Shown here: piece after piece, positions 150 through 42,765 of the stretch
Layout of the letters: the number at the start of each line of letters is the position of its first letter
How positions within the stretch are numbered: the stretch's first letter is position 1
Assembly: GCF_006345805.1 (NCBI RefSeq)
Contig: NC_043007.1
Location: 22,196,001-22,260,000 of the forward strand
Reading direction: 5' to 3'
DNA: 64,000 nt
Origin: Octopus sinensis
Taxonomy: Eukaryota
Notes under the pieces: generated by a model
Database searches by the model: none
What the model was told of the DNA's origin: nothing
What the model saw: the letters and a program-made list of their open reading frames with translations, nothing else
Translations under genes and position numbers: made by a program

Positions 150-985
150 TGAAAGCACATAGCTTAGTGGTTAGGGCATTCAGTTCACGATTGTTAGGTT
201 GTGAGTTTGATTCTCAGCAGCGCACCATGTCCTTGAGCAACACACTTTATTTCATATTGCTTCAGTCGACTCACTAAACATAAATGAGTAGTACCTGTAT
301 TTCAAAGGGCCAGCCCTATTACATTCTCTGTCATGCTGAATCTTCCCGAGAACTATCGTAAATCCTCGAGTATAATCCGCACTTTTTTCTCCAAAATTTA
401 AAGGTCAAAATCCCTAGTGCATACTATATATGAGGTTAAAAATGAAAAATATTTTCTAAGCAATGTCCGAGTCTCTATTTGCTGTCTGGCAATGTTTTTA
501 TTTAGACGCATTTTGTGATGTCGGGCGTGAAAATACCTTAAGCTAAGCCTGAAAGCAATGAAGTCATAAAAGAATCATCCATAACTTGCAGTAAGCAACA
601 TTTATTAAAATAAAAGTATTCAGAACACAGAATAACATGAAACAAAAATAATTTGCAAACATATTTACATTCCCATATAACAGTTAAGAACATCACTATT
701 ATTGTATTACGCATGCGCGGAAGTGTTTGGTCGACTCGGTGCTGCTGGCTTAATTATGCATGACTCAAGTTAGAGAAGGGGTGCATATTATACACAAGGT
801 TTAGGTTTTCCAGAGGTACACCTCCTCTTAAAATCCCCTGCATATTATACTCAAGGGTGGACTATACTTGAGGATTTATGGTATGTTAAGGGTATGTGTG
901 TCTGTGGAGTGATCAGCCACTTGCACGTTAATTTCATGAGCAGGGTGTTCCACTGATTACATCAACTGGAACCCTTGTAACCAAT
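150..985 (+). mobile_element. tRNA-derived SINE (family C here), CpG-decayed, split by a TA-inserted MITE
   Basis: Colinear with the cleaner copy at 62092-62412 (A/B-box head, CORE-like GTCCTTGAGCAA...AAATGAGTA, same tail); interrupted at GAGAACTA|TGTTAAGGG. Confidence 0.8.
356..881. mobile_element. Tc1/mariner (pogo/Tc2-like) non-autonomous MITE
   Basis: TIRs (T)CGTAAATCCTCGAGTATA ... TATACTTGAGGATTTATGG; TA on both sides (354-355, 882-883). Confidence 0.8.
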
Positions 986-2830: not shown

Positions 2831-3133
2831 GGGACATAAACAAACCAACATCAGCTATCAAGCAGTGGAGGTGGGCAGGCAAACACAAACACCCATCATC
2901 ATCATTATCACCACTTAATGTCTGATTTCCATGCTGGCAAGAATTGGACGGTTTGATCGGAACTGGTAAGCTGGAGAGCTACCCCATGTTCCAGTTTGAT
3001 TTGGCATGGTTTCTACAGCTGGATGCTCTTCCTTACTCCAACGACTCTAAGAGTGTAACAGGAACTCTTTAGGTGCCATTTATATGACACCAGCAACAGC
3101 CACGACTACAATTTCACTTGGCTTGATGAGTCT

Positions 3134-3383
3134 TGTGGGATGACATCAGCAGCTGGGGAGCTGACCGGAACTTGGGGCTGACCGGAAGGGATAGCGGTGA
3201 TGCACGTGCAGGATTCTGTCCTTTCGAGTCAGGTTGCTGAGCGGGTAAGATGGGTCATCACGTTGTTAAGGTTGGGGGAAGCAGCTGCTATCTCTAGCGT
3301 TCGGGTCGGGCTGTGTTGAAGGGTCTCCATCTGAGCGAAGAGAAGGTAGGTGCCTTTATTTCGAATCTCTTGCATACACCACA
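3134..3383 (-). mobile_element. Solo LTR (250 bp)
   Basis: TGTGG...CCACA termini; 5-bp TSD AGTCT (3129-3133, 3384-3388); AATAAA on the minus strand at 3355-3360. Confidence 0.75.
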
Positions 3384-9974: not shown

Positions 9975-11740
9975 TATCAGGTCATTCCATAAGTTCTGTC
10001 CGATTTTACCTTCTTTAAAATTGAATGAAATTTAATAGTATTTTAGAATGTCTAATGGAATGAAAACTTATTTTTATGCATTTGTAACGGGAGAAATTGA
10101 TTTGTAAACGATATTATGAAATGTCGGAGTCAGCAGTTGTAACGATAAAAATTTGTTGTTATAATTGCATGTTGTAGGATATGAAAGATGAACAATGCAT
10201 GAAATTTTAAGGAGATATATATTTACCGATACGTTACAGTACCTTGCCTCGACGGGCAGGTTATGATAAATCCAAAAGCATGCGAAGTAAAGTTTGTGTT
10301 TGTCTCCTCTTCATTGTTTAGTAGTGATTACAGAGAGAGATAGAATGATGTAAGAGAACAGAATTAGAGCTAGTGAGAATTGTAGGGTGTTGTCTCACAG
10401 TTGCTGACGGTAAACTTCATTTCTCCCTTTGACCAAGGTTCTAGCCGGTCGGCCAGACTTCATTGTCCCTGAAGTGACTACCTGGTTGAGTGGTCGCCAT
10501 GTGACTGGACTCATTGAGTCGTCACCGACTGATTTTTGCTTGGGGTGTTCTTGTTTTTATAACTATCCAGAAGGACAGACATATCATTGAGAACAATAAA
10601 TTTAGTTGGTGGTCTTGTCATCTCTATTCTAGCCTTTGGCGAAGTAGAAGAGGTTAGAAAGGGTCAAGTGGTGAATATATTATTTCGGCCTAGCTAAAGG
10701 CATCTGGAAAATGTAAAACTGCTGTCAGAGAAAAAAAACAAAAAAAACATTGTTCCACCGTGGGAAAAGTTCTGTTGCAGTGTTAATTTAAATTTGGCTA
10801 TGGTGGATCGAATCCACTTCATGCTTGCAAGATCCACTACACATTTATGTACATTTAAACTAATTAAATATTATTTTACAGAATAATAGAATTAAAAATT
10901 CTTTGATTAAAATCCTTTCTAACATGGAAGTATCCAAAGAGCATTTGAGACACATAAAGGAAACTCTGCAGCCAAAGCGACTCGAAACATACACTCAGTT
11001 TATGGGAAAGAATGAAAGAACTTGCAGAAGATGGTTTGCAAAATTCAGAAGCGGAGATTTCAGCCTTGAAGATAAAGATCGAACAGGACGTCCAGTTGAG
11101 TTTGATGATAAACTCCTTGAGGCATTACTTAAAGAAAATCTTGCATTATCAGTTGAAGAATTGGCAATAAAGCTTAGTTCAAACCATACAACTGTTCATC
11201 GTCATCTTCAACAACTCGGAAAGATTCCTAAACTTAGAAAATGGGTGCCTCATGAATTGTCCGAAAGCAACCGCAAATCCCGAGTTGACATCTGCTCTTC
11301 ACTCCATTCTCGCAAACTCATTTCACCCTTTTTAGATAGACTTGTGACTGGTGACGAAAAATGGGTCTTCTATCGAAATGTTAAACGTCGTAAACAGAGG
11401 CTTGGTAAAAGGGAAAAAGCTCAACCACCCCCGAGAAGGGAATTTCATGGAAAAAATGTTCTTCTCTCTATCTGGTGGGATTGCAAAGGAGTAATTCACT
11501 TTGAATTGTTACCACATAATGCAACAATCAATGCTCAAGTCTACTGTCAGCGATTAGAGCATTTGAACCAAGCTTTGAAGAAAAAAATGACCCGCTTTAG
11601 TGAATCGAAAAGGAGTGATGTTTCATCAGGACAATGCGTGACTACACTGCAAAGATCACATCACAGAAGATCGAAGAACTTGGTTGGGAAAAACTTCCTC
11701 GTCCACCTTATTCTCCCGAACTTGCTCCTTCAGACTACTA
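9975..11740 (+). mobile_element. Mariner (DD34D) transposon relic, 3'-truncated; transposase pseudogene ~10924-11740
   Basis: Left TIR-like TATCAGGTCATTCCATAAGTTCTGTCCG; motifs WVPHEL, TGDEKW, HQDNA and YSPELAPSDY across frameshifts. Confidence 0.92.
10083..10841 (+). mobile_element. Solo LTR (759 bp, Gypsy-like) inserted in the mariner 5' region
   Basis: TGTAAC...CTACA termini; 4-bp TSD CATT; related sequence at ~35050-35880 and 37790-38039. Confidence 0.75.
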
Positions 11741-30040: not shown

Positions 30041-31315
30041 TTAGCGGTATTTCGTCTGCCGCTACGTTCTGAGTTCAAATTCCGCCGAGATCGACTTTGC
30101 TTTTCATCCTTTCGGGGTCGATTAAATAAGTACCTGTTAGGCACTGGGGTCGATATAATCGACTCCATCCGTTTGTCTGTCCTTGTTTGTCTCCTCTGTG
30201 TTTAGCCCCATGTAGGTAGTAAAGAAATAAGTATTTCGTCTGTCTTTACGTTTTGAGTTAAAATTCCGCCGTGGTCGACTTTGCCTTTCATCCTTTCGGG
30301 GTCGATAAATTTAGTAGCAGTTGCGTACTGGGGTCGACATAATCGACTCCATCCATTTGTCTGTCCTTGTTTGTCCTCTCTGTGTTTAGCCCCATGTAGG
30401 TAGTAAAGAAATAAGTATTTCGTCTATCTTTACGTTTTGAGTTAAAATTCCGCGGTGGTCGACTTTGCCTTTCATCCTTTCGGGGTCGATAAATTTAGTA
30501 GCAGTTGCGTACTGGGGTCGACATAATCGACTCCATCCGTTTGTCTGTCCTTGTTTGTCCTCTCTGTGTTTAGCCCCATGTAGGTAGTAAAGAAATAGGT
30601 TTTTCGTCTATCTTTACGTTTTGAGTTAAAATTCCGCGGTGGTCGACTTTGCCTTTCATCCTTTCGGGGTCGATAAATTTTGTAGCAGTTGCGTACTGGG
30701 GTCGACATAATCGACTCCATCCGTTTGTCTGTCCTTGTTTGTCCTCTCTGTGTTTAGCCCCATGTAGGTAGTAAAGAAATAAGTATTTCGTCTATCTTTA
30801 CGTTTTGAGTTAAAATTCCGCGGTAGTCGACTTTGCCTTTCATCCTTTCGGGGTCGATAAATTTAGTAGCAGTTGCGTACTGGGGTCGACATAATCGACT
30901 CCATCCGTTTGTCTGTCCTTGTTTGTCCTCTCTGTGTTTAGCCCCATGTAGGTAGTAAAGAAATAGGTTTTTCGTCTATCTTTACGTTTTGAGTTAAAAT
31001 TCCGCGGTGGTCGACTTTGCCTTTCATCCTTTCGGGGTCGATAAATTTTGTAGCAGTTGCGTACTGGGGTCGACATAATCGACTCCATCCGTTTGTCTGT
31101 CCTTGTTTGTCCTCTCTGTGTTTAGCCCCATGTAGGTAGTAAAGAAATAGGTATTTCGTCTATCTTTACGTTTTGAGTTAAAATTCCGCGGTGGTCGACT
31201 TTGCCTTTCATCCTTTCGGGGTCGATAAATTTTGTAGCAGTTGCGTACTGGGGTCGAGCTAATCGACTGGCACCCTCCCCAAAGATTTCGGGCCTTGAGC
31301 CTAGAGTAGAAAAGT
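30040..31315 (+). repeat. Tandem array of ~6.5 SINE-B-derived 184-bp units in intron 2
   Basis: Identical spurious ORFs 368 bp apart (30472, 30840) show the period and a dimeric higher-order pattern. Confidence 0.92.
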
Positions 31316-35775: not shown

Positions 35776-35920
35776 TATGTCTCGGGTCATTTAAGCAGCA
35801 GATGGAGAGAGTCAGAGTGATGTTGTAGAAGAGAAAGATGAGCTAGTGAGACAGTAAGAGGTGGGACGAGACAACTGTATTGTTGGTGAGTTCCCATAGT
35901 CGTCCTTCTGTGACGTTACT

Positions 35921-36853
35921 TCAGTTGAGACGGCGTTTCGTTGAGCCTGTCAGCCTACTCCCATGTGGGTCATGTTCTTGTACTTGTGACGGCGTTCTCC
36001 CAGGGCGGGTTGAGCCGGCTTCTCTTGTCCTGACGGCATCACGAACCATGGCGGACCATGCTCGACGGTCCTGTACGAGGTCACTGGAGATAGCGAGCCA
36101 TTCGCGGTTCCATCTGCACAGAACGACCACCTGTGGACCTGACAGTTCGGAGAGGTCCTCCTTTATCGTCGTTGCCCAGGTCTTCAGCTGCCCGCCCGTG
36201 TGTTTGCGCCAGTTGGGAAGTGGAAGTAAGAGGAGGATATCGCGAATCAGCTCACCCTCTGGACACCGGGCCGCATGACCGAACCACTTTAAGCGCCGTT
36301 GTAGAAGCACCGAAGGGAGGGGCCGGAGATTCAGACGATGACGAAGACCGGCTGTAGGAACCCGATCAATGCGTCGACAGCGAAGAATGCGGCGGAAACA
36401 GTCACTGTCGGACACCTCCAGCCTTCGCTGGTCGACTACCCCCATAGGCCATGTTTCACAACCATAGAGGAGGATAGTACGAACGACGGCCTGGTAGATT
36501 CGCCCTTTGGTCACCGAGGAGATCTCTCTTCTGTCCCAGAGGCACCGCTGGTGGCGCACGAATGCAGATCTGGCAGCACCTATGCGACGCTCGACCTCGG
36601 CTGCACCCTGGCCCGTTGGAACCACCGTTGAACCCAGATAGACGAAGGACTCCACATCCTCCGACTTCACGCCCTCGAGAACGATTGGCCGCCAGTCATC
36701 TGCTGCAATCAGAGACGTCATCACTTTGGTTTTGCCAGCATCGATCCGAAGACGAACAGCTGCCGTTGCCGCATGCACCTTTTCGAAAGCATCTTGGACA
36801 TCTGCCCGGTTAGAGCCCAAGAGCGCGATGTCATCTGCGTAGGCCAGGTCCAT
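35921..36853 (-). mobile_element. RTE-clade LINE, 5'-truncated RT C-terminal ORF (310 aa)
   Basis: LAYADDI, FVYLGS, LLYGCETW, RLKWFGH and QDRRAW motifs. Confidence 0.92.
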
Positions 36854-37112
36854 GTGGGTCGATTCTCACTAAGTGATATTTCACCACGGAATTCTAGTAT
36901 TTATAATTGTGCAGACTAGCTAGGAAAAGAGGTATACCGTTGTAACAATGGTTAAATTAATGTAGGTCACTCATTATTTATTTCAACTTTTCATGGCATA
37001 GAAAAGAGTCAAGTGGAAGACACATTCGTGCTTGACAATAGGCTGTATGGCTAAGGAGGATTTCTAGATTCGATTTCGAATCTCAAGTAAGGCCAAGTGG
37101 GGTATGTATATG

Positions 37113-37195
<83 letters not shown>

Positions 37196-37211
37196 TGTGT
37201 GTGTGTGTGTG

Positions 37212-37260
<49 letters not shown>

Positions 37261-37590
37261 GTACAACGTGAGATAGGGCTTATGAGTGGGATATCAGTTA
37301 TCCAATATACTGCCAGTGAAGTACCCAAAAGGCTAATACATAAATGCTTACAATTGCAATGCAATTATTTCATTTATTGTATTATATGTGCGAAGGTAAG
37401 ATGTGTTACCGCAAAATCATAATACAAATAAGAAAACGGAGGAACAGATTCCTCTCAATCATCAACTTACAGATATTACCAATTCATATTATTTATTCAC
37501 TACATAAACAGGTACATCCAAATCCAACAGAATAAAACAATATACATCAATAAGTAAGATAATACCATAAAAATAATACATATAAAATGG

Positions 37591-37718
37591 ATCTTACAGC
37601 TGTTTCAGCCTGTAGATAAAAATATCTCATTGTGCCTATATTAGTCATATGTATTGTGGTAATATGCACTTAAAAACGAGTTACTTATATATATATATCC
37701 CAAGGCCTCGTCAGAGAT
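37591..37718 (-). ncRNA. Type I hammerhead ribozyme motif (minimal palindromic stem III, ~90-nt stem II insert)
   Basis: AUCU CUGACGA GGCCU [91 nt] AGGCU GAAA CAGCUG UA^ AGAU. Confidence 0.75.
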
Positions 37719-37789
37719 TATAAAGTACAATTGTAAAAATATAAAATGCAAATATAAAGAACAACTATGGTATATCGCAAACGAAGCAG

Positions 37790-38039
37790 TTATTTCGTCC
37801 CACACTCTCTCGCTAGTTCACAACATCACTCTTACAACATCACTCTATCTATTTCTGTGGATTACTGCTAAGACAATGTGTACACACACTATACAAGAAA
37901 AATCAAGGTTTACTTCGCATGCTTTACGATTTTATCACCTGCTCGTCGAGGTAAGGTATTATATAATGTAACGGGTAAAAATATTTCCTTAAAACTTCAT
38001 GCATTGTTCATCTTTCACATCTTACAACTTGCCGTTACA
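37790..38039 (-). mobile_element. LTR 5' fragment related to 10083-10841
   Basis: Reverse-complement match to ~10160-10290 and beyond; starts TGTAAC on the minus strand. Confidence 0.7.
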
Positions 38040-38109
38040 AATTAATTCCAACCGTTACACAAAATTAATCTTTCATCCTTACACACACACACGCACGCAC
38101 GCACACACA

Positions 38110-38177
<68 letters not shown>

Positions 38178-38207
38178 AAAATAAGCAACAAAAATGACTC
38201 CGGTAAT

Positions 38208-38293
38208 TTGGTACAATCGTTTCGTACTACATCATTTTATTAAATGTTGTAAGTATTACAACAGTTTTAAAATGCTGAACACTCATCAGCCAA
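38208..38293 (-). ncRNA. Type I hammerhead ribozyme motif with a long paired stem II
   Basis: UUGG CUGAUGA GUG...UAC GAAA CGAUUG UA^ CCAA; stem II includes CAUUUUA/UAAAAUG and UGUUGUAA/UUACAACA. Confidence 0.82.
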
Positions 38294-38519
38294 TACAAAA
38301 GTTTTCAAATCAAGTGGCAACATTATAGAGAAGGTAGCTATACAGACAAAGATGTAGATTTAAATTTTAAGAACATATGAGGTAGTGAAGTCCTTCCACT
38401 GACTGACCAAGATATGGCTGTTCCTAACTGCTATAAGGTTAGAAGTAATAAAGATTTTTTAATTGTAGAAATGGGGTAAATATATATATACGCCACACTT
38501 GGTTGGCAATTATATGTTA

Positions 38520-38570
<51 letters not shown>

Positions 38571-38780
38571 TAGCAACAATCACTACTGTTGCTACCATTG
38601 GAACACAAGGTAACAAAAAAGCGGTTCCTTTTGATACCAGCAAGAAACAATAATGAATTTCTTCATTACACTCAACTGTAATATAACAATTATACCAACT
38701 ACCGATAAAACACCACCACATGGATTCTATTGAGAACAGTAAGAAACGATTATGAACTTTTCTATTGCACTTTTTATAAT

Positions 38781-38825
38781 ATTTTTGATAAGGTTCGTTT
38801 TTTTAAGAACCGAAACATGTAAAAT
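38781..38825 (+). ncRNA. Decayed minimal hammerhead motif (core CUGAUGA mutated to UUGAUAA)
   Basis: AUUU UUGAUAA GGUUC-loop-GAACC GAAA CAUG UA AAAU. Confidence 0.55.
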
Positions 38826-39143
38826 TCATAAGAAAATTAAAATTATCTAATATAGTGGCGTTTTCAAACTTCTTTTTTTACAAATATATATATATATATA
38901 TATATAATATATATATATATAATTAATTCTAGTATTATAATTGTGCAGACTAGCTAGGAAAAGAGTATACCGTTGTAACAATGGTTAATTAATGTAGGTC
39001 ACTCATTATTTATTTCAACTTTTCATGGCATAGAAAAGAGTCAAGTGGAAGACACATTCGTGCTTGACAATAGGCTGTATGGCTAAGGAGGATTTCTAGA
39101 TTCGATTCGAATCTCAAGTAAGGCCAAGTGGGGTATGTATATG

Positions 39144-39292
<149 letters not shown>

Positions 39293-39849
39293 ATAGTACA
39301 ACGTGAGATAGGGCTTATGAGTGGGATATCAGTTATCCAATATACTGCCAGTGAAGTACCCAAAAGGCTAATACATAAATGCTTACATTGCAATGCAATT
39401 ATTTCATTTATTGTATTATATGTGCGAAGGTAAGATGTGTTACCGCAAAATCATAATATATATATTTATAAATAAGGATAATATCGATATTTAAATATCG
39501 ATATTATCAAGTGGCCAGCATGGGAAAAATACCATACAAAGGTAATAATTTTTTTTACAACTAATGTATATATAGCGGTTGTATACTGTCAACTTAACGT
39601 GACAGTCCCGTAAAGGGAATCACACGACCACTATTTAGCCCTAGGAAGCATCGACGCTTCCTGTCGGCTTTGACACATTTCCTGTGTCCTTATATTTACG
39701 AAGGGGAGACAGTTAAGCACCAGTCAAATACTGGTTCGATGTAATCGGCATGTCTCCTAAAAGACTGTTGGCATTGAACCCTACAATGGACTGGCGTCTC
39801 GTTCGGTGAGGGGAGGTGCCCAGGTCACTTATACTCCATTGAAACTGGC

Positions 39850-42154: not shown

Positions 42155-42765
42155 GGATTAAGTCGATTACATCGACCCCAGTGCGTAACTGGTACTTAAT
42201 TTATCGACCCCGGTATTTCGTCTGCCGCTACGTTCTGAGTTCAAATTCCGCCGAGGTCGACTTCGCCTCTCATCCTTTCGGGGTCGATTAAATAAGTACC
42301 AGTTACGCACTGGGGTCGATATAATCGACTTAATCCGTTTGTCTGTCCTTGTTTGTCCCCTCTGTGTTTAGCCCCTTGTGGGTAGTAAAGAAATAGGTAT
42401 TTCATTTGCCGTTACGTTCTGAGTTCAAATTCCGCCGAGGTCGACTTTGCCTTTCATCCTTTCGGGGTCGATTAAATAAGTACCAGTTACGTACTGGGGT
42501 CGATATAATCGACTTAATCCGTTTGTCTGTCCTTGTTTGTCTTCTCTGTATTTCGTAACTGGTACTTAATTTATCGACCCCGTAACTACCTGTAACGTTT
42601 GTCTGTCCTTGTTTGTCTTCTCTGTATTTCGTAACTGGTACTTAATTTATCGACCCCGGTATTTCGTCTGCAATTACGTTCTGAGTTCAAATTCCACCGA
42701 GGTCGACTTTGCCTTTCATCCTTTCGGATGTTTAGCCCCTTGTGGGTAGTAAAGAAATAGGTATT
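42155..42765. repeat. Rearranged SINE family B cluster with mixed orientations
   Basis: Tandem units interleaved with inverted CGTAACTGGTACTTAATTTATCGACCCC pieces. Confidence 0.8.

Follow-up and report, generated by a model that had tools for sequence, protein, structure and literature searches.

Hammerhead motifs and repeats at the locus

The 64-kb window, by which we mean the whole stretch of DNA analyzed here, lies within a 2.72-Gb genome and contains three type I hammerhead motifs: hammerheads A (37591-37718) and B (38208-38293) on the minus strand and hammerhead C (38781-38825) on the plus strand. Both strands of the entire window were scanned with a descriptor-based search, in which the type I motif characteristic of Penelope-like elements (PLEs) was defined by the core C3U4G5A6N7G8A9, G12A13A14A15, and an NUH triplet. 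Hammerheads A and B conform to this core exactly and are the sole strict matches, compared to a mean of 0.01 and a maximum of 1 per shuffled window in 100 local dinucleotide shuffles, and strict motifs are thus not as frequent in shuffled sequence. Hammerhead C conforms to the core through a compensated U3-A8 pair and surfaces only if two core mismatches are permitted, a setting that gives four matches in the window and 0.37 per shuffle (30 shuffles, maximum 2). It is weak on the pattern alone, and its reality is established by its membership in a repeat family. With the descriptor scan for A and B and the family copies for C, the three motifs are confirmed, at the level of sequence, at the coordinates given by an earlier sequence-only reading, which had also described A and B as minus-strand motifs with intact cores.

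Hammerhead A contains a stem I of 4 bp (AUCU/AGAU), the core CUGACGA, and the palindrome ACAGCUGU as stem III. Its helix II is a 101-nt domain with a 5-bp closing stem (GGCCU/AGGCU) and a G10.1-U11.1 wobble. Hammerhead B has a 4-bp stem I (UUGG/CCAA), the core CUGAUGA, a helix II of 59 nt with a 5-bp closing stem, and ACGAUUGU as stem III, while hammerhead C has the core UUGAUAA, the stem II GGUUC/GAACC, and the palindrome ACAUGU. Cleavage is predicted at H17 after 37595 in A and after 38212 in B, and after 38821 in C. The 4-bp stem I, the small palindromic or near-palindromic stem III, the cut sites in A and B, and the spacing of 617 nt between them agree with what the sequence-only reading had claimed.

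Each motif is located in a PLE 3' end. That of family A (37243-37758, minus strand) consists of a pLTR and a long tail and is 5'-truncated at 37758, a junction that is real, as it is bridged by contigs of two other runs (37701-38012 and 37706-38009) with no differences. It is followed by a fragment of an older, unrelated repeat of about 320 bp (37759-38075, plus strand), which is 70-74% similar to window positions 35814-35903 and 10159-10351 and to another locus, L037. A (CA)n microsatellite (38081-38176) marks the 3' end of the family B copy (38176-38480, minus strand), which is also 5'-truncated, and a (TA)n tract (38521-38567) separates the points at which B and C are truncated at their 5' ends. 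The 5'-truncated family C copy (38574-38890, plus strand) terminates in (TA)n. No insertion order and no target-site duplication can be read at the locus.

Several other repeats are present in the window. The 3' part of a LINE, which we take to be RTE-like, is located on the minus strand at about 35800-36865, with an open frame of 314 aa (RVT_1, E 1.3e-5), and is truncated where it adjoins an old repeat, here called repeat X. A tandem array with a 184-bp unit in about seven copies covers 30046-31310 and 42212-42695; the short repeat of which it consists has dispersed copies elsewhere in the window, too. A young short repeat at 39456-39564 (best copies 94-98% alike, 1417 candidates) includes a palindrome of 32 nt at 39477-39508; its parent element was not found. 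A Pfam search of 40 of the 82 ORFs in the window, in which short exons would be missed, revealed only transposase and RT-associated domains and no host gene. A possible fourth, decayed hammerhead on the plus strand at 37276-37330, inside the direct repeat described below, was rejected, since its core is absent from other family A copies and it is not listed in the relaxed scans.

Three dispersed families of Penelope-like elements

Judged from its genomic copies, each motif is part of the pLTR, at the 3' end, in a 5'-truncated copy of a different dispersed PLE family, which supports the suggestion that PLE termini have piled up at this site. The copies in the window retain no ORF. The longer copies display the layout of EN+ PLEs, with a single ORF encoding an RT plus a GIY-YIG endonuclease at the C-terminal end upstream of the pLTR, as seen in L111 for family C, in L109, L113, and L158-L163 for family B, and in pieces in L105 and L106 for family A. 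A first look at the genome yielded 2885, 2193, and 1453 candidates for families A, B, and C, of which 40 were scored in each case. The best non-self copy per listed locus was 89-95% alike in family A, the best copies of family B were 81-92% alike, with one partial copy at 97%, and copies of family C were 88-98% alike. Patterns consisting of the core and the closing stems gave 245, 392, and 432 exact genome matches for A (CUGACGA form only), B, and C, and the reversed-pattern controls gave none. The core was intact in 19, 20, and all of the top 24 non-self copies, respectively. Near-identical segments occur at two or more places in the assembly (L055/L058, 99.9% over 3.3 kb; L084/L085; L146-L149), which suggests that haplotype or segmental duplicates inflate the copy counts somewhat.

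The copies also show other traits of PLEs, namely 5' truncation, two fixed 3' end points (in the tail), and adjacent inverted copies. Most copies of family A stop at about 37420 and some at 37243 (query positions 335-340 in 17/24, 515-516 in 6/24, and 437 in 1/24). Out of 24 copies per family, the match ends run directly into (TA)3+ in 22 for A, 14 for B, and 16 for C, and inverted same-family fragments are present in 9, 2, and 2 of 24 loci, or 13/72 in total. The common end points just past the ribozyme, together with the truncation, the tail, and the inversions, match what is described for PLEs, and they also match an anole element, in which the RT has two internal start sites (PMC11167929).

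In family A, pieces of the RT and the endonuclease are collinear with the motif in L105 and L106, and in L105 they lie 3.0 kb upstream, across a 3' UTR of about 3 kb (L105 5180-8227). This arrangement of the parent element was reconstructed by a chain of overlaps, with parts of L105 also found in L104, L106, L107, and L108. The endonuclease piece in L105 is below the Pfam cut-off (E 0.0017) and matches the family B endonuclease in a tblastn search (E 3.8e-17). In L006, an inverted RT piece, 96.5% alike, adjoins the A motif. The N-terminal part of the ORF, with the DKT site, is not among the recovered pieces. The linker, CNCRIKDNC, corresponds to CxCx5C, and by this motif family A looks tentatively Hydra-like. 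Helix II is closed by G-U in 13/13 aligned members, in 11 of which the search pattern had fixed that position. Across the subfamilies the core, the closing stem, and an inner 6-bp helix are constant, while the remainder of the insert of about 100 nt diverges. The A stems are 89.7% paired, with stem I paired in 77% across the 13 subfamily members and broken in several. The covariation of these stems is not above the control, as 70 of 500 shuffles scored as high.

The stems of family B appear to covary, in a check that the sequence-only reading had suggested and that was scored for families A and B. Here, 95% of the cells are paired, 4/15 pairs have two-sided changes, for example in stem I with UUGG/CCAA versus UCGG/CCGA between subfamilies, and 0/500 shuffles reach the score, although the signal comes largely from one divergent two-member subfamily and the shuffle control ignores relatedness. 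The window copy has lost 20 nt immediately upstream of the ribozyme, a deletion private to it, and its palindrome is weakened: most of the listed matches have the perfect palindrome ACGAUCGU where the window copy has ACGAUUGU. An ORF is present in L036, L113, and L109, and the GIY-YIG domain is located 577 nt upstream of the motif in the longer copies (E 7.6e-5 in L036). Relatives with 85-96% protein identity have open frames of 916-1124 aa, the longest of which lies in L160, with an ADKT motif, a CxCx5C linker (CNCRIRSKC), and no CxxC inside GIY-YIG. The ADKT motif was identified in 9/20 loci and in 4/6 extended loci, the remaining extended loci being truncated or unmatched by the scan. Long Asn-rich inserts separate the RT and the endonuclease in the ORFs of both A (L105) and B (L109, L158-L163). 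With the DKT motif, the CxCx5C linker, the lack of CCHH, and the (TA)n targets, family B looks, by its motifs, like a member of the Hydra clade.

Family C (ORF in L055, L062, and L111) encodes an upstream frame with an RT, a Cx4CxxC linker, and a GIY-YIG domain (E 4.5e-6 in L055 and 1.4e-6 in L111), with a stop codon 905 nt before the motif. The linker is CGRPNCGIC, and the endonuclease contains YVLTCAGC...YIG with a CxxC, followed by two His. The Cx2-5CxxC linker and the CCHH endonuclease are those of Neptune elements, and the architecture appears to be of the Neptune/Nematis type. The third core had been described as decayed, which is refuted by the family. UUGAUAA is found in 24/24 aligned copies, and among the 448 exact matches to a pattern that allows either letter at positions 3 and 8, 432 are U3-A8, one is C3-G8, and 15 are mismatched. 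UUGAUAA is a family-wide covariant, in which the pair between positions 3 and 8 is kept as U-A. The sole C3-G8 copy (L114 1383-1546) is located where two inverted copies fold back on each other, the other arm being U3-G8, and may be accidental. A U3-A8 hammerhead variant with about 1,300 hits has been published for the Cercyon PLEs of S. mansoni (PMC4209133).

Some candidates were set aside. The open stretch upstream of A and the antisense open stretch in B were rejected as ORFs of the elements, since the ORFs are on the ribozyme strand. Two loci with pairs of same-strand motifs (L115 and L116), considered as full-length elements, and the inverted pair L117 contain only unrelated inserts or fragments. 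Hammerheads of other families were also observed: L099 has two identical copies on the plus strand (2473-2577 and 3070-3174), spaced by about 600 bp within a tandem duplication of 98% identity, which may be retrozyme-like or a tandem pLTR, and L017 has a type I hammerhead with a non-palindromic stem III (180-261, minus strand).

Origin of the cluster and the predicted RNA

We consider it very probable that the cluster consists of three 5'-truncated 3' ends of different PLE families, each with its own dimer-type hammerhead, which probably inserted separately into a single stretch rich in microsatellites. The family membership, the RT/GIY-YIG ORFs upstream in longer copies, the common 3' end points, and the position of the motif in the pLTR are observed in the copies, while the start and abortion of reverse transcription, the target preference, and the cleavage of dimers are drawn from established PLE biology. 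Target-primed reverse transcription would begin a short way beyond the ribozyme, at fixed sites, and would usually abort early, so that most insertions would be pieces of 300-500 bp with a hammerhead. PLE endonucleases would prefer AT-rich or (TA)n DNA, and the PLE ends, themselves being followed by (TA)n, could feed further insertion. In the tandem transcripts of parent elements, two same-family copies would pair through the palindromic stem III, each supplying the strand that the other needs for stem I, and such a dimer would cleave slowly, perhaps with help from a protein (PMC4209133; PMC6765202; PMC11167929). The solo copies in the window are likely inert, since they have no same-family partner in cis, and the locus is likely not a working unit.

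How unusual the site is can be estimated from the family loci. The three families occur together in 0/72 loci, two of them in 1/72, and an intact foreign hammerhead in 2/72. By chance, about 1.2 triples per genome of any three hammerheads within 1235 bp would be expected (0.002-57), a rough value obtained from two events, while 0.006 are expected for the specific A, B, and C triple under uniform placing. The site is uncommon, yet within reach of chance combined with a microsatellite bias. Counting against independent insertions are the rarity of the exact triple under uniform placing and a direct repeat of about 535 bp for which they do not account.

It is also conceivable, but unlikely, that the clustering was driven by a specific preference of PLEs for one another's ends rather than by chance and the microsatellite bias. 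According to a review (PMC6765202), PLEs tend to insert into or beside existing PLE copies. Pieces of other PLEs are present near the family copies in L108, L109, L111, L112, L159, and L163, and the young short repeat mentioned above starts, within (TA)n, exactly at the common 3' end point of A in the right-hand copy of the direct repeat. A preference of this kind is at odds with the low number of the 72 loci that contain a second of the three families or an intact foreign hammerhead, and with the unrelated 320-bp fragment that separates A from B.

The direct repeat flanks all three motifs, with a left copy at 36890-37424 and a right copy at 38925-39458, both on the plus strand. Outside microsatellites, the right copy lacks five single bases of the left one, each in a short run, and there is no substitution; two mismatches that were counted between them fall past the edge at 37424/39458. 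Such near-identical repeats raise the question of whether the 2-kb block forms a single non-autonomous composite with LTR-like direct repeats, which was moved or duplicated as a unit with its three ribozymes. This is very improbable, as the block is common to 0/72 loci and the repeat is itself a patchwork of the old repeat X, microsatellites, and the tail of A, with its right edge at the common 3' end point of A. Furthermore, the X part is near-identical only between these two copies, the 39 other listed matches being 69-91% alike, and every difference is the loss of one base from a short run, as also seen in long reads before polishing. The direct repeat may be an assembly artefact, or it may be a very young duplication. 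No hammerhead was found in any of six loci related to repeat X (36850-37100).

Another proposal of the sequence-only reading was that a minus-strand transcript cut in both B and A would release an RNA of about 617 nt that could circularize. The two H17 sites, 37595 and 38212, are indeed 617 nt apart, on the same strand and in intact cores. In a hammerhead dimer, each stem I is built across the two copies, with a 5' strand from one and a 3' strand from the other. The palindromic helix III would permit a same-family dimer in A, B, and C, with stem III energies of -11.1, -5.8, and -4.6 kcal/mol for full self-duplexes, compared to -1.5 for the cross duplex of A and B. The cross stem I of A and B has only 1/4 pairs, and the first pair fails both ways. 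Because the cross stem I fails, A and B are not predicted to form a dimer, nor could the ribozyme be expected to ligate the 617-nt piece. The piece is itself a patchwork of the B tail, (TG)n, the unrelated old repeat, and most of A, and it recurs in 0/72 related loci; the circle is thus unlikely.

For a circle to form, the locus would have to be transcribed, each of the two sites would need its own partner in trans, and a protein would have to ligate the piece. We regard it as highly doubtful that a minus-strand read-through RNA is cut at B and A, with same-family RNA completing each ribozyme in trans, and that the piece is circularized by a cellular ligase, such as RtcB, to form a composite retrozyme born from retrotransposon debris. 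Hundreds of intact same-family copies could serve as partners, and cleavage followed by ligation has been proposed for PLE hammerheads (PMC4209133, PMC6765202). However, in addition to the failed cross stem I and the single-copy block, the hammerhead folds of the window copies exceed the minimum energy by 8.0 kcal/mol in A and 6.5 kcal/mol in B, with a stem II probability of at most 0.02. In the predictions for A and B, the fold was not formed by two copies folded together either, and the B core is caught in a GCUGA/UCAGC hairpin that is also predicted in another family copy. The minimal hammerheads of PLEs are described as slow even as dimers (PMC4209133), and the available account of the anole PLE reports no reads at the cut site (PMC11167929). 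In contigs from 4 of 24 listed runs, compared over 37263-38075, neither a joint nor, among the loose ends listed (190 more lie outside the listing), an end at 37595 is seen; contigs cannot show RNA ends, so that this weighs on neither side. None of the runs listed for the locus is marked as RNA, and the two best are RNA only by guess. If true, the 617-nt circle would illustrate a route by which unrelated PLE ends give rise to retrozymes.

That all motifs are chance matches in AT-rich DNA is refuted by the family evidence and has a practically negligible probability: hammerhead families in Rfam, which had been suggested as a check, gave no match in the window at the gathering threshold and were absent from the 23 matches at 36800-39600 with E<=10, the window copies have weak z-scores for folding (-0.76, -1.88, and -0.80), and C by itself is close to the shuffle background, but set against this are the excess of strict matches over the shuffles, the hundreds of exact genome matches with empty reversed controls, the location downstream of PLE ORFs, the covarying B stems, and the divergent relatives L122 and L127 (z -3.26), which fold stems I and II at minimum energy.

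Comparison with known Penelope-like elements and retrozymes

The three PLE ends, likely inserted independently, represent ordinary retrotransposon debris, and the value of the locus is that it points to three PLE families that are abundant. Two of these resemble the thinly sampled Hydra clade and have an unusually long hammerhead helix II, in which the core and the closing stem are fixed while the inside diverges. The A and B hammerheads would provide handy natural substrates for learning what PLE hammerheads do and whether the protein of the element is needed. PLE hammerheads and nearby pairs from truncated PLEs are already known (PMC4209133), and PLEs have been annotated in Octopus vulgaris, with ribozymes unmentioned in the main text of that study (PMC13282606). 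A literature search of article texts found no paper on cephalopod PLE hammerheads or on helix II inserts of 60-110 nt, though such reports may be in print, as many variants are listed in the supplements of PMC4209133 and 10.1101/2021.04.23.441226. Minor novelty attaches to the length (59-110 nt) of the structured helix II in A and B and to the 3' UTR of about 3 kb in A.

Among described PLEs, the Hydra clade (10.1101/2021.04.23.441226) shares with family B the DKT in place of DKG, the CxCx5C linker, the absence of a CxxC inside GIY-YIG, the hammerhead, and the (TA)n ends, and with family A the CxCx5C linker. Hydra elements are described there as generally shorter than 3 kb, unlike the frames of 916-1124 aa with Asn-rich inserts in the relatives of B and the long 3' UTR of A. 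Family C resembles the Neptune clade in its Cx4CxxC linker, the CxxC within GIY-YIG and the two His, the C-terminal endonuclease, and the microsatellite-associated ends, but differs in its U3-A8 core.

The metazoan non-LTR retrozymes (PMC7229834; 10.64898/2026.07.22.740005) are similar to this locus in that they have type I hammerheads, are non-coding, and are related to PLEs. However, they are described as tandem monomers of 150-450 bp with one same ribozyme, whereas the locus contains three different, single ribozymes of families that carry ORFs. A retrozyme, as had also been suggested for this site, is therefore unsupported, since there are no tandem monomers here and each motif is single in the window.

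The closest parallels are the type I hammerheads, minimal or with a small palindrome, that have been described from the pLTRs of PLEs (Cervera & De la Pena 2014, PMC4209133) and share the 4-bp helix I, the palindromic helix III, the location in a PLE repeat, and the U3-A8 covariant. They are also mostly solo copies from truncated PLEs, with close pairs on opposite strands. Their helix II is 7-8 bp long, unlike the 101 nt of A and the 59 nt of B, and their conserved G10.1-C11.1 pair is kept in B and C but is G-U in A. The hammerheads described here also differ from them in that there is no extra base between positions 9 and 10.1 and in that three families are placed side by side.
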